Source: Lophium mytilinum (lineage: Eukaryota). From it: DNA of 64,000 bases. This document shows positions 22,412 to 36,847 of the stretch, one piece after another (position 1 is the first letter of the stretch; each line of letters starts with the position of its first letter). The position numbers and the translations under genes were made by a program. A model generated the notes under the pieces. The model made no database searches. It had not been told where the DNA came from and saw nothing but the letters and a program-made list of their open reading frames with translations. The stretch covers positions 1,798,001 through 1,862,000 of the forward strand of contig MU004181.1 in assembly GCA_010093605.1 (NCBI GenBank). Reading direction: 5' to 3'.

Positions 22412-24731
22412 CTATAGCGGACTAGCCTCTAGCCGTTTCCGCTCTTCTTCCGCTTCCTCCAGATCCTTCAAAATTTCCGGAAGCATATCCTCTATCTCCT
22501 CCTCTCTGATATTCAACGCGCCTTTAATGAGCCGCTTGTACTCGATCTGCCGCTCGCTCATACCCGCTACGCTGATATTCTGCACCACCTCTGGCACGAG
22601 CATCCTCCGCTCCGCCTGCGCTCGACACAATAGGAACGCCAGCTGTAGCTTGTCGCGCAGAGCGGCATCGCTGCCGTCGGCTTCCTTTCCGCCGTGGTTC
22701 TGTTTCTGCGACTGCGCGGTCATACTTATCTGTCTCAACTCAAGCCTCTGTTCGACCTCTAATAACACTTCTGCTTCGCGAACTAAACTAGCCAGCTCCT
22801 CCTCCTGCGCTTGGTCGAGCTCCGGGTCGTCGTCGCTTGATAATAGAGCCAGCTCTCTGCGTATTGAGTCGAGTTCCTGTTGGCGTTTGCGAGCCACCCG
22901 CTCCGCTTCTTCATACTCCTCTTCCTTTTCTTTGAGCTCATCTTCGTACGCGATGGCTAGCTCTTCACACTTCTGGTGCAGAGTAGGAACGATCTTGGTC
23001 ATGAGGTGTGAGGCAGTTGAGGAGTGAAATTGCACTGCCGTGGGTATGCTGGTGGCAAGGGAGGTCTGGAAGGGGTGTGGCACTAGGTCGCCGTTCATGC
23101 GCGGATCCGGACCAAATGGCGAGGAGGACGCCTGGCGAGGGCGACCGGCTTGACGGCGGCGCAAGTTTAGCTCGTGAAACAGGTCGTCTGCGGTTTCGCC
23201 TTTGTTATTCGGTATGTCTGTGGTAACGAAGCGGCCGAGGAAGGAGCGCACGCATTTTCTTGCGCCATTACGCGCAGCAATCATGATCGCCGTGTCGCCA
23301 TTCTTGTCTTGGATGTTAAGAAGTCGCGTGACTTCTTCCGGAACCCAGGTTTCCAGTAGCTTGTTAATGATGCAATCGAGGTAGTAGCGTGCGCAGACAT
23401 ATTTATTTGTTGAGGAGGTAGTTGCGGCAATGTGGTGGAACACAGTCGACCCGAACCAGTCGGTGCGGACAACGGTCTGCTGAAAAATCTTCACCATGCT
23501 TGGCATGGTGTTCTTGTCGAAGTTGTTTGTGAACATGACGGCTCGCATCAAAGGTGTCTCGAGGTTGTTGGAGAGGCAGTCTATCCGTGCACCTCGACGC
23601 ATGAGCTCCTTGACCACTTCAACGTCACCCATAGCGGCTGCCCAGTGCATAGCTGAGTGGCCCTTCTCGTCAATAGGCCGATCGAGGTTGACGTTGGCAG
23701 GCGGCTCCGGTGGTGCAGGGAAGCGGTCGTCGGATTCGAGGAGCATGAAATAGTCGAGCAAGGCGTCGGCCCATATCTGGTGCTGCTGGTCTTGAAGAGC
23801 CATCTGATCAGCGCCTCGCTTCCTTTTCCTTGATGAAGCAGAGTATTGAGACACCCCAAGCATATCTTGATCCCCGAGCATGGACTCTGAGACCACCGTC
23901 TCGTTGTCGGGGGTGTCTTCTTTAGCAAACTGTACGCTACCATTGTCAAACTGCTCTTCGCTAATTTGGCTCTGGCTAGCGGTCTGGAAAGCTGCTACGA
24001 CTAATCAGCATGCGTCTATGGAAGCCCCATACAGTGAAGGTATATCATTAGCACTAAGCGCGTGGACTATTGGCTCCACTTTGAGACGCATGAGGGTGTA
24101 AGAAAAAAGTAATGTTCACTCTTCTTACCGTTCCTCCTCGCCGCTGCACTCTGCCTCGGCACCTTTGGCCTGTTTGAAGCAGCAGTCGCATGCTTCGGGG
24201 CAGGAGGAGGGCTGCGGTCTCCTGGTTTATAGTCAAATATTGGGAGCAGTTTTTCCAAGACGCCGTTGCGCTCTGCCAGAATTCGCCCGTCGTGAAGCGG
24301 CACCCATGTTCCTATATTCAAGACGTCGTCAGCCACCGCATATAGAAGCTTGTCTGCATGTTCTGACCTTGGTATTTGCCGTATCCGCCCTGGACTTTCT
24401 CATGCACGCCCTTCTGGACCTCGCGCTCTAGGATACGGGTTCGGGCGGGCTTGTCGAAGTCGGCTACCTTGAGGATATGAGTCGCATTAATCCAGTCGTC
24501 AGCGCGTCGACGCATAACATGGTTACCGGCGATATTGTACTCGAAGACAGGGACCTAGAACATTTAGCAGTTGCTTCTGTACTGTGTGGAGAAGTGGTGG
24601 ATATGGCATGGGAAGTTTGATTGATCTGGTGAGCCAGAGGGATGCGCCGGGCGAAGTGACGAGCACAGCGCGAGGATACTTACATTACTGTACGTCGCAG
24701 AGTAGATCTTGGTATTCGCATCAGACGGCAT
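22412..24731 (-). CDS. MBP1: APSES/ankyrin cell-cycle transcription factor (Mbp1/Res2)
   Basis: [43 protein letters not shown]; ankyrin repeats ([29 protein letters not shown]); C-terminal coiled coil; three introns. Confidence 0.92.
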
Positions 24732-24945
24732 GATGGCGATAGGGTTGCTTGGATCGTCAGTGAATGCTCTAATCTACACGGTCGGGAGGAGACGCGCCTT
24801 CGCGTCGCAGTGCGGTCGGTCCTGCGAGTTCTGCCACCGCCTTCACCACCTGCACGAGCTCCATCTTCGCCCGATGGCCGAGCTCTCCACCACCACCAAT
24901 TCGACAAACGCCTGGTGTCAAGCCTGCTCCACGCCGCCCGCCAGC

Positions 24946-25366
24946 ATGACAATCACCGAGTCTATCAAGGAGGCGGTCGGCCTGAACAATGCCTCCTCAG
25001 GCCGTGAGTGACGTGTCCCTGGCCTTTCAATTGGCGCAGCTGCAGGAACACATCACGACTGACACGACAACAGAAGCCACACGAGAGGAGATGTCCGCGG
25101 CGAAGTTGCCAATTCAGTACAGGGACTCGTGTGCCCATCTGCTCATTCCCCTCAACCGCTGTCGAGTGGAGGAATACTATCTGCCGTGGAAGTGCGAGGT
25201 ACGCATTGGCGTTGTAGCCGCGACGTCCGGCCCCCGAAACAAGAGCTAAGAGGAGCCTTAGAACGAGCGACATTCATACGAGAAGTGCCAGTACGTGGAG
25301 TTCAAGAAGCGGGTGGCCAAGATGGACGAGCTGAGGGCAGCCAAGGACGGAGCGCGGAGCAATTGA
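24946..25366 (+). CDS. NDUFB7: NADH:ubiquinone oxidoreductase B18 subunit
   Basis: ATREEMSAAKLPIQYRDSCAHLLIPLNRCR...PWKCE|NERHSYEKCQYVEFKKR (twin Cx9C); two introns. Confidence 0.92.
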
Positions 25367-25565
25367 TATCAACGGGCATAACGAAGGCATTCCGCAGGTC
25401 ACAGGTCGAAAAGCTGCATCTGTATATAGCCGCAGCATCGACAGCATGTAACAATTATGTTGGCAAGTCCGAGAAAACTCGGGGCGTTTTATTCACATCA
25501 CGCATCACCGTGGATCTTGAACAGATAACTACTTTTACAGCATTTGACGCCTATACGGTTGTGTC

Positions 25566-27514
25566 TCACAGTTTCGATTTTCGACGTTCCGAATCACCCC
25601 CTTCAGCTTTTGCCTGTTCACGAAGCACCTTTCTCAGTATTTTCCCGGACTAAATTATCATCAGTCACCAGTCCGACCGCACAGACGGGAAAGAGACTTA
25701 CAGGAATCCTCGGTATAGCTGCGACGAAACGCACCCCTCCGGTCAGCCTTTTGAAGCGGGAAACTCTTTCGGCTGTCCAATCTTGAATTTCTTGGGCCGT
25801 CACCATTGAGCCCTGCTGTAATACAGCATAGGCTCGTGGTGCCTCCTCTCCTTTCCTGCGGTACGTTAGCACGTTTTATTTCGACCGCCTCGATATCCTT
25901 ACACAATCACTCCTATTACTGCCACATCTGCTATATTAGGGTGCTCTAACAGTAGAGCTTCGATCTCTGCTGGCGCAACTTGAAGGCCTTTGACCTTGAT
26001 TAAATCCTGGTCATCATCTGTTAGTATCTTCAAACGCCCGTCTTTGTGAATGAGTAGACTTGCCTTTTTCCGATCCACTATGTAAAGGTAGTTTGTCTCG
26101 TCAAAACGCCCAATGTCCCCAGTTTTGAGCCATCCGTCACTCGTGATAGCTTCCTTCGTCACTTCCGGCAGCCTCCAGTAGCCCTTCATTACGCTTGGCG
26201 CGCGGAACCATACTTCGCCTCGTTCGCCATGGCTCACCTCTTGTAGCCCGTCATCGCTAACAATCTTAATTTCACAGTTCGGTGCCAGCTCTCCGACAGC
26301 ATTTGACGTGGAGATCGCCTTTGGATGGAATATGCAACCCGTCAGGGTCAGCCTGCCGCAAATCAGAAAAGCCCGGCAATGTAAAAATGTCCAAACTTCA
26401 ACTCACTCTGTCATTCCCCACGCCTGCTTCACATTGACCCCTCCATCCTCCCAAAGCTTTTCAAATTCGTCGCAAACCTCTCTTCCCAACGGCGCTGCAG
26501 CACTGATGACGCGCTCAACAGCACTAAGATCAAACTTGGGCGTCGCAGGATGTTTCGCCATGCCGACTACGATGGGCGGCACGATGATCAGATCTGTAAT
26601 CCGGAACCTCTGCGTCGCCTCAAGCATGGCAACCAGATCGAATTTCGGCATTATGAAGATCGGAACCCGCTGGACAGGGCCTTGGAAGCAGAACAGCACC
26701 TGTCCCATTGCATGGTACATCTAGGAGTATCAGCATCGCAAATGCCGGAATTCGTGCATACGGTACTTACGGGCAAAGCACAAAGGTACCGGCTTCTTGC
26801 AATCTTTGCTTTATACTCCGGATCTAGGGATACGACGTGGACGCTTTGGACGCAATTGGAGACATAGTTACGGTGGGTTATCATGACTCCTTTCGGCACA
26901 CCTGTAGTTCCCGAGGAGTAGTTCAAGACGATAGTCTGATTGAGGAAATCGTCCGTATCACGGTTCTCCCATTCGAATGGCCGCCCGTCATCGTCGGACG
27001 CCAATAGAGTCGTCCAGTGCCGGATGTTCCCTCTACTCTTGCCTCGCCCTTCGAAACTTGCGGCCCCATCATCGAAGGCAAAGATTCGATCCTCGCCCAT
27101 TCCTACTAACTTCGCAGCTTCGATCCCTGTAGCCAGACTACCCTCCGAGCAGATCAGAAAACTGGCCCCGCTGTCTTGGAGTTGATAAGCTAGTTCTCGG
27201 ACGACGTATGACGGATTGGCGCCGGTAAAGATCCCGCCAGCCATGACGATGCCCATGAGTACGACGGGAAAGAACACAGAGTTGCCTGAGAAGAGCAGCA
27301 CGCGACCTCCCTGTGCGAGCCCGGCTCGTTGAAGACCAAGCGCCAACCGTTGGGACCATAGACGGTAGCCGGCATGGCTTAGGAAATGCTTGTCGGGGCT
27401 TGTGGTTGAGATGAGAGCGGGAGTTGTGGGGAGAGGCGCGGTGGGTGAATCAAAGAGATAGGTAGGAAGTGAGATGCGAGGGACTTCAATCTGCCATCGC
27501 GATCTTGTAGGCAT
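25566..27514 (-). CDS. Peroxisomal 4-coumarate/phenylacetate-CoA ligase-like AMP-binding enzyme
   Basis: YSSGTTGVPKGV, QAWGMTE, GWLKTGD, IKVKGLQVAPAEIE, SGKILRK; spliced last exon ends RRKSKL* (PTS1). Confidence 0.9.
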
Positions 27515-29019
27515 GTTTGAGGAATTTGATAGAGCAGGTGGATTGGTTGAAGCTTGAGATTGTGAGACGGTTTGGGGATGTAGTCTGCAGGATCGTTTGA
27601 TGCCCGGGTAACGTCCTGTTGCTGTTGAACCCTGTCGATATCTTCCCGAAAGCACAATACAGCCGCTGGGTATACAGAGACATCCACTTCGGCCGTAATT
27701 TTATGCGGTATTCGGATGGTGTGACAGACCCAATACCCAATCCGAGACCTCTCTGATGCCGAACTCCTACTGACGCCAGCGCTTGGAGCCAAGGCCTCCG
27801 CGGCAGAAACCACCAGATAGCCCACAAAGACTTCCAACAACAAAGTCAGAGTACAGCAAGACCTTACCAATCCTGAAAACACCTTGGCACAAACGAAAAC
27901 GCAAACGCATCAAAAGACTCGACGCACAGAACCAAGAGCGCCGTCGTTGCTTTATCAGCCTCCAGCCGCTTCCGACGCACCACGCGGCGTCCCGTGCCCG
28001 TTGATGCAGACCAAGAGTTTTTATATCCTCAGCATTTCTGTGAATGGCCCAGAGGCGAGTTTTCCAAGGCGTACGACCCGCATTCATCGGTGCCCCGCAA
28101 GCAGGGGCAGGCGAGGGCTGGGTGAAGCGAGCGTGGCGCTTGGGCTGGCCGGTGGAGATGCCGCGGTTGGGGGTGCTTGGAGGAGGCACTAGTGGGGGGT
28201 TGCTTGGTTTTGTGGGTTGATTGGAGAGAGTGTTGATATTCGGGTGTAGGAGGGGATGCGATGCATGGATTGGTGAGGCTAGTAAGCTTCATGTTCCTTC
28301 GAGAACTTCATGTCGCCAATTTGTGGGCGGTAGCCTAGGGATCTGCATCGGAAGATACATGCAGGGATAGTTTGTAATAGGCTGTTCATGAGAAAAAGTA
28401 CATTTGGCATAGAAATGCTCAGGTTGGGTTTCAAGCCATGCTCTGTAGCGAGTATATCTCCGAAGTCGTGGAGAATAACGGCGGACATGTTTACTTAAAG
28501 CTTTCTGACACCGCTTATGTTATCCCAAGGCGGTAATACTTAGTTGAAGCAACGGATCACAAGAGCAACGTATCATAGGCCTTATCTAATACTGTGTACA
28601 CCTTTCTACTGCCACGTGAGGAAGGTCGGCAAGGTTTCGGGCAAATCAAATGGACACATTCTTTCCATTCGCTCCCTCCTGACTATGCACACCAACGAGA
28701 TCTCACTTAGTATTTTAGACTCATCCGCCAAACGACGATAGCACACTAGACGTACGATCTCGTACTATGTGGCGCCTAGTCCTCCCTCCACGACACGAAA
28801 AATACAAGGACGCAAACCGAGACTAGGCTAGTCGGTGCCAGCAACTTCAATGGGCAAGTTTCCTCCGCTCATCGAACTCAAATACCGTCCAGAAAGTTCC
28901 ATCTATAAAGCCGCCGCATTAACAGTCCTCTCAAGCACCACGTGAACTCACACAGCTCTGCCCTTAGAAATTACGCTCACTTAAACTGCGAACATTCACC
29001 CCAGTTTCCCCAACGTCAA

Positions 29020-29398
29020 ATGGCCACGAAAGAAAGTTTCGTGGAGATACAAGCGTTAAAACAGCTCATCAGCGGCAAGTAGTCATTAATGGCCCTCCTG
29101 ACAACGCTAAACTGTATCTCTAGAAAGCGCCCAGCTGCAGTGGCCTGAAAGTAAGATCAATGCTGTAAAGATATACAAAAAGCCCAGGGAGCGGGTCTGG
29201 CTTGCAGTTGTAAAACGGAAGACCAAAAATACTACGAGCGGTCAATGGGAGGATATAATCTTGACCAGTAGCGCTGCTACTCGGGATCGGCTTGGGACAT
29301 TGCGCCTATTGTTAGTTGCTGTTGAGGAGGAGGGCGGCAAAGATATCATGGCGCATATCTCTTCTTTTCGGCGTAAGCTGATGTTGAACGTGCGGTGA
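29020..29398 (+). CDS. Orphan 109-aa protein, paralog A, with GC-AG intron 29075-29123 (absent from ORF track)
   Basis: Exon 1 MATKESFVEIQALKQLIS, GCAAGT donor, TAG acceptor at 29123, open exon 2 to TGA 29396-29398; aligns end to end with paralog B; TATAAAG ~115 nt upstream. Confidence 0.72.
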
Positions 29399-29723
29399 GA
29401 GACCGAGTCAGCCACATAGCCACTTGAATGGGTAGTTTGGAGCTGAACAATGAAATCCCATTGAAACCATGTGAAGCAAGCCAAAGGCAGAGTATTGGTG
29501 CCCAGCGAGTTTTGTTCACCGTGTCTATGGCTAGCGAGTTTGCGAGTTTGCGACTATTTGGTTTGACATCATTATATATTCCAAAACATAAGACAAACGC
29601 GATATAATAACAATAAACGGCTTGGATATAAAGGGACTCCACTCACTGCTACCCAGAGCCCATCTAGGACAGCTGGCCGATCGTGATCGAGAGAACCTCC
29701 ACGCCCCGATTCCACGTCACAAA

Positions 29724-30109
29724 ATGCCACCAACCGAAAGCTTCCAGGAGATCCAAGCCTTGAAACAGCTCATCCGCGGCAAGTGATCCCAATATACAGA
29801 AGGCCTTGCAAACGTTCCACTCCGCTAAGACTTTTATTAGACACCCCTAAACTAAGAGGCCAAAATGTCAGGAACCCCGTGATTAGGACCTACAAGCACC
29901 CCGGACTTCCAGTGTGGCTCGCAGAGGTGACGAACGAACCCGAGGACGCTCTACACATCACTAGTCCCCGCGCTGGGAGTCGAATGGAGACTTTGCAATG
30001 TCTACTATGTCTTATCGAGGAGATCAGTAGTCGTGAGATCATGGCGAACCGCTCGTCGTGTCGGCGGCGTCTCTTAGAGTTGGGAGCTGAGAGACTATCA
30101 AGACATTAA
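29724..30109 (+). CDS. Orphan 107-aa protein, paralog B, with GC-AG intron 29779-29840
   Basis: Exon 1 MPPTESFQEIQALKQLIR, GCAAGT donor, GCTAAG branch-like site, TAG acceptor at 29840, in-frame exon 2 to TAA 30107-30109; TATAAAG ~95 nt upstream. Confidence 0.72.
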
Positions 30110-30425
30110 ATTAGTGCCGACAGATCGGTCCCTTTGACGTGGAGGAGATATGAAATGCTGTTTGCAGTTGCAAAAGAATATCGATTGATGATGTGTATTA
30201 TCTGGGAGTAAGCTTTTGCGTGTCCTCGCTTTACCCTAGTACTCACGGACTGCCGGTGCATTTTCCGTCGTAGTTGCCCATACACTTTCCTGTCAGTGCC
30301 TTAGGGCATCCCAGATCTCTGAGTCGGAAGGAACTTCAGGAATCTGGGCAAGTGATGTAGTTATGAAGCGACCCTGGATAGAGGCAGAGGGGTTTACACA
30401 CTAGCTAGGCACTACAATGCCACCA

Positions 30426-32707
30426 CTAGAATCCCAAAAATACCGCAGCAATTGAAACAGCGGTGCAAATGACCCAGCCGTACCCTAATTGTGCCGCCGT
30501 GTTAGGAACTGGCAGAGGCGGCATACTCGAGCTCGTCCCTGGTGTGAACGCGTTGACCTCTAATGATTGCACACCTCCTTTCACACTTTCCAACGGAGCG
30601 ACGAAAGCCATCTGGCTCCAGCTAAACAGTTTATTCCGGCCTCCAAACACGAACACCTCAAAACGCCCCACAAAAGTCCCGTTAATCCACACTCTTGACC
30701 CTCCTATCACGTCACCGGTAACGACGACATCGGCTGGGACGGCCACAGTGACCGGCTTGTGCGTCGAGCTGGTAAGATTCGTCCAAATGCGCCCAGGCAT
30801 GCCCGGATCAAAGCCATCGGCAATATCGGTGGAGCGGAGCGGATAATCCCATCCATCGGAAGTGGTGAAAACCAGCGTCCCATTTCCAGATAGTGAGAGA
30901 GTCGTGTCAGGGCCCGATAAAGTGAAGGGGCCAGTGACGGAGAGCGAGAGGGAGTAGTTCATGCCTTTGCTACCCTGTCCAAGCGCCACCGATCCATTGT
31001 CAGAAGCCGACCGGGCCCACGAAAAGAGAGAGGTGGAGGCACTGTTTTCGCCAGGGAGCTTTCTATCGAGATTCTGGCCAGGGGCGTGAGAAGAGAGGAA
31101 CTCAATCGAGGCGTCTGAAGTCACTGGAATAATTGCCGGCCCTCGTGATCCTGACCAAGCCTTTGCTCCTACAATTGGGATACCCTTACGTAGGGCGTAA
31201 TATGCCTCCAGCTGGGTGGTAGCGTCTGCGCCGTTGTCATTCCACGCGGCCATGATGGCACCTTTGTTTCCCGATGCAGTGCTTGAAAGCTGCTCTGTCG
31301 TGTTGACGTAGTTGAATAAGGCGGGATTCCACTGCAAGTCTCGCTCGTTCGCAAAGTTCAAGACGCGGGATACGTTATAAAACTGTGGATATGGAGCGGG
31401 GTTGATGGGCGTGTGGTCATTCTTGAGGGACATGTAGGCCCACCAATCTTCGGAATTGATGAGTTGATATCCGTCGTTCTGCAGCTCAACAGGATCCGAC
31501 TCTCCGTATTGCCAATGCTGTATAATGATGTCTTGTGAGATGGTTACGTTTTTCGAGGGTTCGTTGGTGCCCCAAATCCGGATCTTCTTGCCAGATGTAG
31601 AGTTGACGAAATCAGACATTTCATTTACGAATCGAATGTAGTCATCTGCGAGTGTGGAGTCGTACTCGTCAGCACCAATATGGACCTCCTTCATTTGGAA
31701 CCATGGAAGAAACTCGGCCCATAGGCTCTTGACTGTGGGAATACTTTCGGGGTGCGTTAGATTAAGGAGATCTTTTGACGCCAACGCAAGTTCTGGCTTC
31801 CATTTGGTGATGGAAAGGCAGTGACCAGGAGCTTCAATCTCTGGTATAACGGTCACACCTCTTTGCGCACAATGCTTTTGGAAATCTTCAAACTCAGCCC
31901 GGGAGAGAGTTTCATTTGGTCTCTGCACGATCCCTTGAAGGTCAGGGTTTTCTGGGTATAACGACTGCACGCGAGGGTACAACATTAGTAATGTTGGAGC
32001 AAGTGGAAGTTGACACATACGAATTGACTGTAAACTAAGTTCCACGTCTCGTTGTGGCCGCGATTTAATGGGTAGTTGTCACTGGCGTGATAGTGGAATT
32101 CTGACATCTTAAAGAATGATGCATATGTGCATAGGTCCTTCAAAAAGGACGGCGCGTACCATTTCCTTCCCGCATCTAGCATGAATCCTCTAGTCGAGTA
32201 CGCAGGAGCGTCGGAGATCTTTCCAGCCGGAATCGAAGACCCATTCGCAAGGAGAATCTGCTGGAGGAGCGTTCGCGTTCCCCACCACATCCCACGAGCG
32301 CCTTGTCCTCTTATGAAGACGCTAGAGCCTTGCACTTCGAGCTCGTATCCTTCCTCGGTGACAACTCCATTCTCATAAGTCAAGCCAGAAAAATTTCCCC
32401 CAAGTGAGCCGAGGTATATCCCAGATCCATTCGTGGGCAGCACTCCAATGCGTTGAAGGGTCCAGTTCGTCCCGGTAATCTGCTCGAGGTCTTCGAGGAA
32501 CGTCTCTGCAAACTCGTAGGCGGAAGGCGGAATAAGTGTCAAGCCTCCGGTATCAACATGAGAGGCAAATGTGCTCTCGATATAGATAGTTTTAGCTGAT
32601 GAAGCGATAGAGAAGGCGCCAGTCGAAGCGTTGCGGCTCCATTGAACTGGCGACAGGGCCTGCAGAGCAGATACGGCGGAAACAAGGACCGAGAGAATCA
32701 GCAGCAT
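30426..32707 (-). CDS. Secreted glycoside hydrolase family 20 (beta-hexosaminidase-like) with hydrophobic, GPI-like C-terminus
   Basis: Signal peptide, RGFMLDAGR, VIPEIEAPGH, catalytic HIGADE; intron 31965-32020. Confidence 0.92.
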
Positions 32708-33557
32708 GATGGTGTGACAAAGTATTCGAAGGTGGGCGAAACCTGCACTTTATCATGGTGATAGTGATATTGGGGTGCATCGTCTTAGATTCTGAGGCCA
32801 CGATAAAGGGCTACACAATATTGTAACCGGGACATTGGGACGATCTGCGGTCCGAGGTGGTAAAGCACCTTATCAAGTGCGGAGCATACTTATCTCCAGG
32901 TTCCCCTCCAGCGGGATGTAACCTTTCAGAGAGCCAAGAGATTGTGGGAAGGCATCGCGAAAGAAAACAATACTTACTCGCGAAGAGTGGGATAGCAGTC
33001 AGTAGCTCCATCTGGGGAGTCAACAGTTACATCGCTCTCCTATGGCCGTCTCTTGCCTCGGGTAGCAGCATCCTCGATCATAGACGACCACGGATGCTAC
33101 TCGCGAGGGAGACGATGCATGTCAGTCATGTCGCCGACAGATGTGTAGCGGCGATGCTGATGCAAAGCGGCATGGATTTGTATCAGCGAACGTACACGGC
33201 CGCTCCGGGGATGCGAGAAAGCGCCATGAGCACGGACCGAAGATCAGTGATGCGAGTCACGTGACATGTACAAAAGAGTCACCCGGAGCATAGAGTATCT
33301 ATGTAACCCTATCCATGCTTTTCTGCTATTCTGGATGGTACCTTGAAGGTGCCTCGAGAGATCAGACGCGAAATGTTATTGGTTCGAAATCAATATGCGC
33401 TGACGTTCACCAGCACTTGAAACAGTGTAATATTTCACAACCTCTCTCCCATGTTACAAGATAAGTTGGCATCTCGGAAAGCTAATAGCACAAATCATAT
33501 TCAGACAGCCATGTCCTAGAAATTTCACGCCAACAACTAATCTGTAGCGGTGCTAAT

Positions 33558-34540
33558 TCAACCGCTCTCCTTGATGACCTGATCCATCGTTTTCACATAC
33601 TCTTCCACTTCCTTCGCTCCCTGTAACGTAAAATCTCTCCTCCTTCCCTCAAAGACTATATACGGCACCGAATCAACCCCATTTCCAGTCTGCTCTCTTA
33701 TCAACATCTTAACATCCTGCAAGCCCTCATACTCATCCTCCACAAACGCCTTCGCCTCAGCCTCATCAACCCCAGCCGCAGCAGCCGCAGCAAGAAGCGT
33801 CTTCTCCTCCGAAGGATGCCGCTCCTGTTCAAAGTACTGGCTATAAAGCGCTATCTCTCCCCTCATCAGCCCCGTTCCACCACATCCATCTTGCCCCACT
33901 CCCGCTGGGGGGGGCGCACTCACATTCAACAGCCTTCCTAGCCGCCTCCTCGCCCTTAGTCTCCTGCACCCACTGTACCACCCTATGCGCATCGATCGTG
34001 TTGGCCACGGTCCCGCCAAATTTGAACTCGATGCCACTACTCTTCCCGTACGCGCTCATCACGCTCGTGTACATCTTCATCTTCTCCTCTGAGTCGCCGT
34101 ATTTGCTCTTCTTGTACCATTCGTACTTGTCCTCGCCCGCCTTTGAGGCCTCGGGGTAGAGTTGGTATGGGAAGATTTTTAGTGTGAAATTGACGGGGGG
34201 AGGCGGGGAGCGGGAGCGGAGTTGGTCCAGGGCAGTGGTTAGACGGCGGAGGGCTAGGTATGTCCTGGACAGCTGTTAGATGGGCGGGAAGGATGTGACG
34301 TTGGGGGGGAGGGGGGGGGGTTTATGGAGCGTTTGTGTAGACAGGAATTTGCAGGAGATGACTTGAATCAGATGCCACTAAGGAGAAGTTCGTGGAAAGT
34401 GGATGCATCTACTGAGTGAAGCGCGTCCAGAGAGCTAGGTCTCCGCAAGGGGCAGACCGCAAATAAAACGGGGCTATGGGGTTCAATTACCAAGGACATA
34501 TTGTATCCAGCGTGAAAGAGATTTGAGAGTCGTAAGTCAT
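33558..34540 (-). CDS. DSBA-like thioredoxin-fold protein (FrnE/GST-kappa-like)
   Basis: DTICPW|TYLA, FPYQLYP, NTIDAHR, GVDSVPY, LQGAKE; two introns. Confidence 0.85.
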
Positions 34541-35154
34541 GACGATTGAATGCAGAGAGGGAACGTGAACTGTGGAGTATAACTTTTTATTGACCTTGGA
34601 CTACAAGGAGTCAATTACAGACCAAGTGTGACTGGGTTGAACATCCTTGAGGAACTTCTTTGATCTGGACCCCGCAGCGGACCTGCGGCTCTTTCGTCAC
34701 ATGCGGGGTTGGCATTTGATATGCGCTAGTCCACAATGTTTACTTTTTTCAATTACTTGCCCCATCTTATTGGTGGGCTCCTTACTTTATTTGAACTTCC
34801 AATCAGTATACCTTAGTTCCACGACTTCAAGTGCCTCATTTGTTGTTGTGAGCGTCAGCGACTTCTGAGACTGAGACCGAGTAACACATCGAAATGCTTT
34901 CTAATTGGTTGAGTGAGTGGTAGCACGTGACATCTGCAGATGTGTCTGTGGAGCTTCAGTGAGTTCTGAAACATTTGAATAAAATTAAAGTCCATTGTTT
35001 GGAGCAGCTGTTAAACTCGAAAGGCGACTTCAGATAATGTCAGGGGGGTGTAGGTGGTTTCCTAGCGCCGAACGACACGCTTGAACTCTTATGCTTAGTC
35101 TATTCGGAGCCTAGCAGCTATCCTCAACAATCAAATACCAGCCCGAGTAGTAGA

Positions 35155-36847
35155 TCAGCGACCTGTATACTTCTTCTCCACGACCCTCGCCACAGGATAC
35201 ACGATCAACGTAAACACCGCGCTTAGATAGATGCCCACATCGCCTCCAAACCCACCGAACTTAGCCGCAATAGGACCAATGTACCAAGTTTGAGCCTATG
35301 CACAATATTAGCCCAGTCATTACTAATGTTCGTATGCTTGAACTTAATAAATCCTTGAACCTACCATTCCAGTGACACCGCCCGCAAGATACCCAGTCAA
35401 CAGCGCAAGCACCGCGGCAGCGCCCCATGGCAGCCCCTGCGGCTTATCCCACACGGTGAGGTCGTAGCCAGAGCGTTTACGGAAGAATTGGTCTTCAATA
35501 AGGAGGATAATCGTGAAGCTGACTGTCCAGTAACCGAGCAAGCTGACGAAGTTCGAGACGATGGTGGAGAGGTGCTCCTGGCCGGCAATGGCGAGGACGG
35601 CGATTACGATGACGAATAGCAGCGACCAGATCAGCCGCGGCACGGCGTGGAAATAGTGGCCGAGGAGTTGGAGCGAGAGACCCGAGGAATAGTTGATGGC
35701 GATGTTGTTGCCAAGCACGGAGAAGGTGAGCATAACGAGGCAGAACTTGGACCAGCCAACGGGGTGGTAGATTTCATAGATCAAGCCACCGAGACCGTGG
35801 TTGCCATAAGCATCGGCGTAAGGGGGATACGCGGCGGATATCGCCGCGTTACCGAGACAGCAGCCTATGACCACAGAGAAGGAGGTGGGAAGGACAATGC
35901 CCCACCAGGTAAGGGTGAAGACTTTCCATGTCGGGGTGTCAGCGGGAAAGTTGCAGTAGTAGTCGGCTGCTATACTGCACCAACCAGAGGCGTTGGAGAA
36001 GTTGATAGACAGGATAGTCAAGAAATTGGCGGCGAATGCGGTACCAGAGCTGCCATCTAGTCCTGGGATGCTGGGATCAACATGCGGCGCTGCTTGGCCG
36101 ATGAGCACGCAAAGGAGGATGAAGGTTCCAATCCATGAGTACTTCTCAAACGAGTGGATGACTTTGAATCCAAAAACGCAAAGAACGTAGGAGATGACTG
36201 CTATGATCACGATGCCGACCGTGATAGACATAGTGTAGTCGCTCACTGCGTTGAGGATCTGACCAACGACGACATAGTTGACAACAGCGAAGCCGCCTCC
36301 GACGACGACATTGAGGACGGAGCAGAGCTTTGCGCCCCAGAAGCCGAAGGAGTAGCGGGAGGTTGCGATTTGACGGAGGCCAAGCTATCCATATACAATT
36401 AGTGCATCGTCCGGGCTAGCGTTTGGATGTTGTAACTACCTTTGGGCCCAAGGTTCCGGTGAAGGCAGTGCACAGTGCTCCAAGCATAGTTCCCACTACG
36501 CTGGCAGCAATGGACTGATTGAGCGACAGGCCGAACTCAGGGCCGAGCAGCCCCAATGGAACAACTCCGACGTGAACATTGAGCGACCACCACATCAAGA
36601 AGATGTTCCAGATGGAGGGAGGCTGCTTCTTTTCCTCTGGGATACGGTCCACGCCCTGTGTCTCAATGCCCATCTTGTTGTCGAGCCACTCCTCTCCCTT
36701 TTTCAGGGCTCGAAGAACGGGGTTGCGACTCTGGATCTCCTTTGCACGGCGTATCTCTTCGATAGATGCATCGTCAAATTCGGGCGCGCTCACAACTGCG
36801 GGCCCTTTGGCAGCTTCTGCATCGAGGTTCTCCTTTTCGTAATCCAT
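35155..36847 (-). CDS. NCS1 family purine-cytosine/vitamin B6 permease (Fcy2/Tpn1-like)
   Basis: GIETQGVDRIPE, GPK|LGLRQ...RYSFGFWG, multiple TM segments, WYIGPIAAKFGGFGGDVG; two introns. Confidence 0.9.

Follow-up and report, generated by a model that had tools for sequence, protein, structure and literature searches.

The best-studied orphan genes of fungi encode small secreted effectors. A second point of comparison for the locus described here is a minor class of introns, those with a GC donor, which in Table 1 of a published survey make up 1.009% of fungal introns (PMC7072748). The same survey states that ab initio gene prediction rarely handles non-canonical splice sites, and that among plant homologues of GC-AG sites 9,830 kept GC-AG and 13,045 aligned to GT-AG (PMC7072748). 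For the branch site, a further study gives CTRAY as present in 91% of Fusarium introns (PMC5677156). The literature yielded no description of the gene family treated below, which has no name to search by.

The window, a 64,000-nucleotide stretch of the Lophium mytilinum genome, contains two genes, A and B, both on the plus strand and flanked by genes for an AMP-binding enzyme and a GH20 glycosidase (Table 1). They are probably real protein-coding genes, small, tandem, and anciently duplicated. Splicing would give predicted products of 109 amino acids for A (stop ending at 29398) and 107 for B (stop ending at 30109). The preliminary description had listed the exon 1 sizes, the donors, the intron coordinates, the product lengths, the TATAAAG boxes, and a 20-residue unspliced peptide ending in GK, all of which were reproduced from the sequence. 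Nearby, the product of a single-exon gene falls into a 90%-identity cluster with one from Mytilinidion resinicola, which places the host, a filamentous ascomycete, near that species in the Dothideomycetes.

Table 1. Coordinates of genes A and B, their parts, and the flanking features (positions in the window).
Feature	Position	Strand	Remark
AMP-binding enzyme gene	ATG 27514	minus	Flanks the gene pair
Gene A TATA-like box (TATAAAG)	28904..28910	+	116 nt before ATG; present in the sequence, putative promoter element
Gene A coding exon 1	29020..29074	+	55 nt, phase 1
Gene A predicted GC-AG intron	29075..29123	+	49 nt
Gene A coding exon 2, including stop	29124..29398	+	Predicted three-stranded sheet, then three helices
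Gene B TATA-like box (TATAAAG)	29627..29633	+	97 nt before ATG; present in the sequence, putative promoter element
RNA-covered stretch over gene B	29647..30425	n/a	Same contig as the convergent GH20 gene
Gene B coding exon 1	29724..29778	+	55 nt, phase 1
Gene B predicted GC-AG intron	29779..29840	+	62 nt
Gene B coding exon 2, including stop	29841..30109	+	Predicted strand/helix order as in gene A
GH20 glycosidase gene	30426-32707	minus	Convergent with gene B

Both genes have the donor G/GCAAGT, where the slash marks the exon boundary, and the acceptor TAG. The gene A intron carries the canonical branch-site candidate CTGAC (29098-29102) together with GCTAAA (29106-29111), whereas the gene B intron has only the variant GCTAAG (29824-29829) and not the common CTRAY. 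Retention would bring an in-frame TAG at 29080-29082 into gene A and an in-frame TGA at 29784-29786 into gene B, and the unspliced products are alike, 20 amino acids ending in GK and a stop. After the initiating Met, 12 of 17 exon 1 residues in gene B are the same as in gene A, and the four synonymous changes previously reported for this exon were located at codons 6, 10, 12, and 13. Residues 6-18 of gene A form a putative amphipathic helix with a hydrophobic moment of 0.84. The consensus start-codon context has A at position -3; gene A has C there.

Judging from the sequence, in vivo splicing of both introns is likely. The second exons share 26 of 73 residues (36%, E=2e-12). For the proposed pair of frames the local score is 99; none of the other 35 of the 36 frame pairs exceeds 46, and no score above 47 arose in 5000 shuffles. 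The introns are 49 and 62 nt long, with remainders of 1 and 2 modulo 3, and removing either restores the frame; the 12 RNA-contig joints in the window span 50-226 nt. With these unequal intron lengths, the predicted spliced proteins align colinearly and without gaps through codon 48, starting at the ATG; in this register the ungapped score is 35, and each of 16 other shifts gives -10 or less. The motif G/GCAAGT occurs 12 times in the window, counting both strands. At only three of these sites do a branch-like site and a YAG follow within 40-100 nt; two of the three are the donors of genes A and B, where the branch-like sites stand 11-22 nt before YAG. Elsewhere in the window, GCTAAA and GCTAAG occur close to the 3′ end in introns whose splicing is confirmed by RNA contigs. 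Since the first Met in the exon 2 frame yields just 16 amino acids in A and 41 in B, most of the conserved exon 2 domain is without a start of its own.

Two alternatives to these introns were rejected. Ribosomal frameshifting in place of splicing would need opposite shifts in A and B, a stop stands at codon 21 in both, and in gene A another stop directly precedes the opening of the exon 2 frame. Alternative in-frame acceptors at 29207 and 29924 are in register, yet their use would lose conserved residues.

The AMP-binding gene contains a GC-AG intron candidate of its own with a G/GCAAGT donor (26063-26007, minus strand, 57 nt), the removal of which gives a continuous enzyme sequence. No joint for it is listed in the RNA contigs, one of which ends at 26008. 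This candidate (26007-26063) is in frame and stop-free, and to a gene finder it would look like an insertion of 19 residues.

The likeness of genes A and B at the DNA level was compared with shuffled sequences, of which 4 of 500 reach the observed score for promoter plus leader, 1 of 500 for the intron, and 75 of 500 for the 3′ flank. Between 28990-29080 and 29693-29784, identity is 76.8% over 95 columns. Constraint on regulation, or an old gene conversion, may lie behind this likeness at the 5′ end. Of the 5′ leader, about 30 nt fall within the alike stretch, the word ACGTCA stands just before each ATG, and the 3′ flanks are unalike.

RNA evidence comes from the contigs of one run, from which strand cannot be read and which drop rare variants. 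The run contains spliced RNA of this organism, with 12 joints in neighboring genes, all GT-AG or CT-AC. Among the 8 of 35 contig pieces listed, from this single run and its variant-dropping contigs, there is no joint at either GC donor. Some cover is present in all 30 bins, and the blank at gene A carries no weight as evidence. Contig 4 covers 29647-31964 with 0 gaps, crosses intron B unspliced, and is joined across the GH20 intron. Taken alone, it argues against efficient splicing of gene B in that sample.

A control lies 4 kb away. There, the contig of a small plus-strand gene, presumably one resembling NDUFB7, is unspliced over 25260-26008 and crosses two GT-AG introns of the convergent AMP-binding gene (25902-25856 and 25701-25650) whose removal the frame requires; the upstream introns of that gene are spliced in the same run. 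Because the same geometry hides two obligatory introns at that site, the unspliced contig over gene B is most simply explained by read-through from GH20. Its cover of gene B is probably 3′ read-through of the GH20 transcript, antisense to B. The control weakens the objection to gene B and adds no support for splicing.

Other observations concern the RNA contigs of the surrounding genes. The contig over 25260-26008 overlaps approximately 400 nt of AMP-binding coding sequence. Another contig, 26771-28596, reaches about 1.08 kb upstream of the AMP-binding ATG (27514), and short Met-initiated frames lie under this extension at 28030-28300; the extension may belong to a long leader or represent a separate transcript next to the gene. 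On the minus strand at 23995-24128, an ankyrin-repeat transcription-factor gene, presumably resembling Mbp1, has two donors 9 nt apart, GTGAAC and GTAAGA, that share one acceptor, and both joints are present in RNA contigs. At 24757 and 33792, single contigs carry 255-nt loose ends without a match in 23500-35500, and these are possibly assembly chimeras.

The preliminary description had also proposed that the pair is under purifying selection. A protein-guided alignment of A and B gives a dN of 0.53 and a dS of 3.1, the latter saturated, while exon 1 gives 0.17 and 1.37. As protein-guided alignment can bias dN/dS, the analysis turned to codons 2-48, where the ATG and the splice sites set the register; these codons show a pN of 0.32, a pS of 0.78, and identities of 32, 32, and 18 of 47 at the three codon positions. 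Together with a second ungapped block, they give a pN/pS of 0.48 over 91 codons, a set that omits the C-terminal tails and an indel region of 8 residues. In simulations with matching nucleotide identity, under a simple model with no indels, this value was reached in 0 of 400 runs at an omega of 1, 16 at 0.5, 182 at 0.3, 336 at 0.2, and 392 at 0.1. The divergence therefore fits a dN/dS of roughly 0.2-0.3, a sign of purifying selection as measured between the two paralogs rather than on each copy separately, and the proposal is borne out by the failure of all neutral simulations to reach the observed ratio.

Conservation is higher in exon 1 than in exon 2 (12/17 versus 27/73 identical residues, Fisher p=0.015). 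Codon-usage scores were exceeded by only 1.9% of non-coding samples for A and 5.4% for B; among gene chunks, which were part of the training set, the scores are low, with 7 of 39 (A) and 4 of 39 (B) scoring lower. Both frames are open despite saturated synonymous sites. In simulations of neutral decay, the frame stays intact in about 1% of cases at 0.4 substitutions per site and in 24-48% at 0.05-0.1. A present-day function in both copies is likely.

The survival of open frames at 0.05-0.1 neutral substitutions per site would also suit young pseudogenes, one or both copies having been silenced recently, with B perhaps shut off by antisense GH20 read-through. Such silencing would agree with the GH20-joined contig that crosses all of gene B unspliced and with the missing annotation of both genes. 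It is nonetheless unlikely, given that each copy keeps its TATA box, ATG, donor, branch-like site, acceptor, and open frame, and that the same read-through geometry conceals the obligatory introns of the AMP-binding gene.

The explanation that accounts best for the locus as a whole, and one that is reasonably probable, is that of two real tandem small genes whose GC-AG introns are removed and whose products are binders or adaptors. Each gene would be transcribed from its own TATA promoter, probably under some conditions only, and the inherited GC-AG intron would be removed by the ordinary major spliceosome. Splicing would join the ATG and the conserved N-terminal helix of exon 1 to the conserved exon 2 domain. 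The products would be basic alpha+beta proteins, neither secreted nor membrane-bound, in which the exon 1 helix may pack on the exon 2 sheet or form a binding surface.

The two predicted proteins have isoelectric points of 10.1 (A) and 9.05 (B), 0 and 3 cysteines, and a highest 19-residue hydropathy of 0.65 and 0.87. By composition, with a charged N-terminus and no long hydrophobic stretch, they do not resemble the secreted cysteine-rich type. Secretion or a membrane location is unlikely because long hydrophobic stretches are absent and cysteines are few. Models of exon 2, from which exon 1 is absent, were made separately, for A from the two-sequence alignment and for B alone. Both show three strands and then three helices, at a mean pLDDT of 61 (A) and 54 (B). 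The structure prediction and Foldseek comparison suggested earlier thus returned one arrangement for both proteins, at low confidence, and no significant match, as Foldseek found nothing at E<=0.001 in the PDB or viral libraries and VIA found no Z>=8. On composition and this low-confidence fold, a role as small intracellular non-enzymatic binders or adaptors is slightly favored, and nucleic-acid binding specifically is doubtful.

The best structural neighbor of exon 2 A is HVO_2922 (6q2z; Z 5.2, rmsd 1.7, 53 aligned residues), and the same structure ranks fifth for the low-confidence model of exon 2 B (Z 4.5, rmsd 3.4, 57 aligned). With the search tool used, Z values of 4-5 are common at rank 50, and all neighbors of A and B fall within the range of common arrangements. 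The 6q2z chains presumably belong to the YegP/UPF0339 family (DUF1508, PF07411). Exon 2 of A and B differs from this family in having two extra C-terminal helices and only 2-4% sequence identity to it. The PF07411 profile had no match at E<=1 in the whole genome and none in either exon 2; control searches matched in 5 of 14 genomes.

The fold search also raised the reading that A and B are stand-alone dsRBD-like RNA-binding proteins, for example RNA-silencing cofactors. Chains containing a dsRBD occupy many of the 50 rows for exon 2 A at Z 3.4-4.3, among them 9kby (Z 4.3, rmsd 3.8, 66 aligned) and 2l2n (Z 4.2, rmsd 3.1, 62 aligned). The proteins are basic like dsrm (PF00035), and exon 1, if helical, would complete the helix-three strands-helix topology of that domain. 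These Z values are, however, no higher than the level common at rank 50, and MurC ligase domains do equally well or better, at Z 4.9-5.1. The dsRBD signature is a lysine-rich motif before the last helix; this motif is absent from A and B, which have extra C-terminal helices instead. The PF00035 profile found nothing in either exon 2 and two domains elsewhere in the genome, with control matches in 9 of 14 genomes. Against those two dsRBDs, the spliced A and B proteins did no better than shuffled sequences, 75 to 776 of 1000 shuffles reaching the score. A dsRBD-like identity is accordingly improbable.

Further copies were sought in the 43.4-Mb assembly of 49 contigs, with a genome search that scores the best candidates only. 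Protein searches (two candidates each), a DNA search, and an exon 1 pattern with two mismatches allowed all returned genes A and B alone. A short exon 2 pattern matched the genome 41 times, compared with 52 in a reversed control, and a second pattern matched 5 times in each. When a profile was applied to the loci of 31 of the 42 other places, the best value was E=0.53, and the full profile revealed no third copy across the window. The proposed check for additional copies thus ends with two members in this genome by protein, DNA, pattern, and profile searches.

Searches of annotated proteins with exon 2 found no relative; two hits were long, repeat-rich, unrelated proteins judged spurious on inspection. 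The query in all protein searches was exon 2 alone or a profile built from its two sequences, with which distant relatives could be missed. Pfam, PHROGs, and NCBIfam gave no match for exon 2, and the best among PDB sequences was E=1.5, in line with the earlier remark that no domain was recognized. Pattern matches were confirmed at 0 of 104 places in viral contigs and 0 of 33 in prokaryote contigs. In metagenomes, all 15 of 15 loci found with the exon 1 pattern were without a G/GYAAG donor and exon 2, the best tblastn value being E=0.018, upstream of the match. Top scores in the ESM Atlas, which serve as leads only, were 0.81 for unnamed Ascomycota clusters (94 and 103 amino acids) and 0.87 for unnamed bacterial clusters. 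A non-coding RNA reading found no Rfam match at E<=1 in 27500-30500.

An exact-sequence lookup in a protein collection found 2 of 8 window translations. The six misses comprised two exon 2 fragments, an alternative start of one of the proteins found, and three guesses at two other genes. The gene A and B proteins and their shorter forms are absent from the collection, and because it includes the annotated proteins of this genome, the pair appears to be unannotated. This may be due to the GC donor, to low expression, or to how short the genes are. Of the "unannotated lineage-specific family" put forward in the preliminary description, what stands is a two-member family, apparently unannotated by exact lookup, with no relatives among annotated proteins or metagenome contigs.

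Regulation of A and B through intron retention is possible. The version of this idea that has been spelled out treats the weak GC donor as a switch: retention would lead to a 20-residue helix peptide or to mRNA decay, splicing to the full protein, and the peptide may compete with the full-length product. In both copies the donor has stayed GC even though synonymous sites are nearly saturated, and reading into the intron meets a stop at codon 21 (TAG in A, TGA in B). The better conserved exon is exon 1 (p=0.015), and intron B is crossed by an unspliced contig. The GK ending, however, is dictated by the phase-1 donor and, with its stop, follows largely from the donor consensus: the next codon starts with T, which gives each copy a chance of about 3 in 16 of a stop there. 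For the unspliced contig, GH20 read-through is the better explanation. DNA likeness that spans promoter, leader, and intron means that the shared donor may have been inherited or homogenized. Ordinary inheritance is the simpler account of the shared donor since, in the survey, GC-AG sites are often kept among plant homologs (PMC7072748). The switch is very unlikely, and the intron-retention control raised when the pair was first described is unsupported.

A broader proposal would make A and B members of a new eukaryotic family of stand-alone microproteins with a dsRBD/YegP-like fold, widespread in Dothideomycetes and systematically missed by gene finders. A separate exon, set apart by a weak GC-AG donor, would encode their first helix, retention would switch production to a 20-residue competitor peptide, and B would in addition be gated by GH20 antisense transcription; this combination is hardly to be expected. 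A mobile-element relic or captured viral gene is barely credible, for although cellular relatives are absent, the best weak look-alike is among uncharacterized phage proteins (E=0.066), and TpA/ApT is 1.00 and 0.87 compared with 0.69 for the window, there are only two genome copies, no terminal repeats beyond the paralogous stretches, negative composite RIP indices (-0.22 and -0.11), and predicted spliceosomal introns and TATA boxes.

If the two tandem genes are real, they represent a protein family without a described relative, probably with a stable fold, of which both copies were missed by standard fungal annotation. They would also exemplify how short genes with GC-AG introns drop from annotations and from the protein databases derived from them. 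Only a demonstration of regulated retention or of RNA binding would connect them to a long-standing open question. The pair probably forms a family without detected relatives, of the kind of taxon-restricted small genes with a minor-class donor.

Compared with the best-studied fungal orphans, A and B are without a signal-peptide-like stretch, have few cysteines, and belong to a family found nowhere else among annotated proteins and metagenome contigs. Like other small orphan genes of fungi, they are short, match no family, form a tandem duplicate, show moderate purifying selection, and are missing from annotation while their neighbors are annotated. With U2-type GC-AG introns of fungi they share a GC donor in an otherwise strong G/GCAAGT context, an AG acceptor, a branch-like site, and a typical length. 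Introns of this type are a likely cause of missed genes, as ab initio prediction, according to the survey, rarely handles non-canonical sites (PMC7072748). No mechanistic difference separates the A and B introns from this class, and the particular feature here is a predicted intron common to two paralogs.
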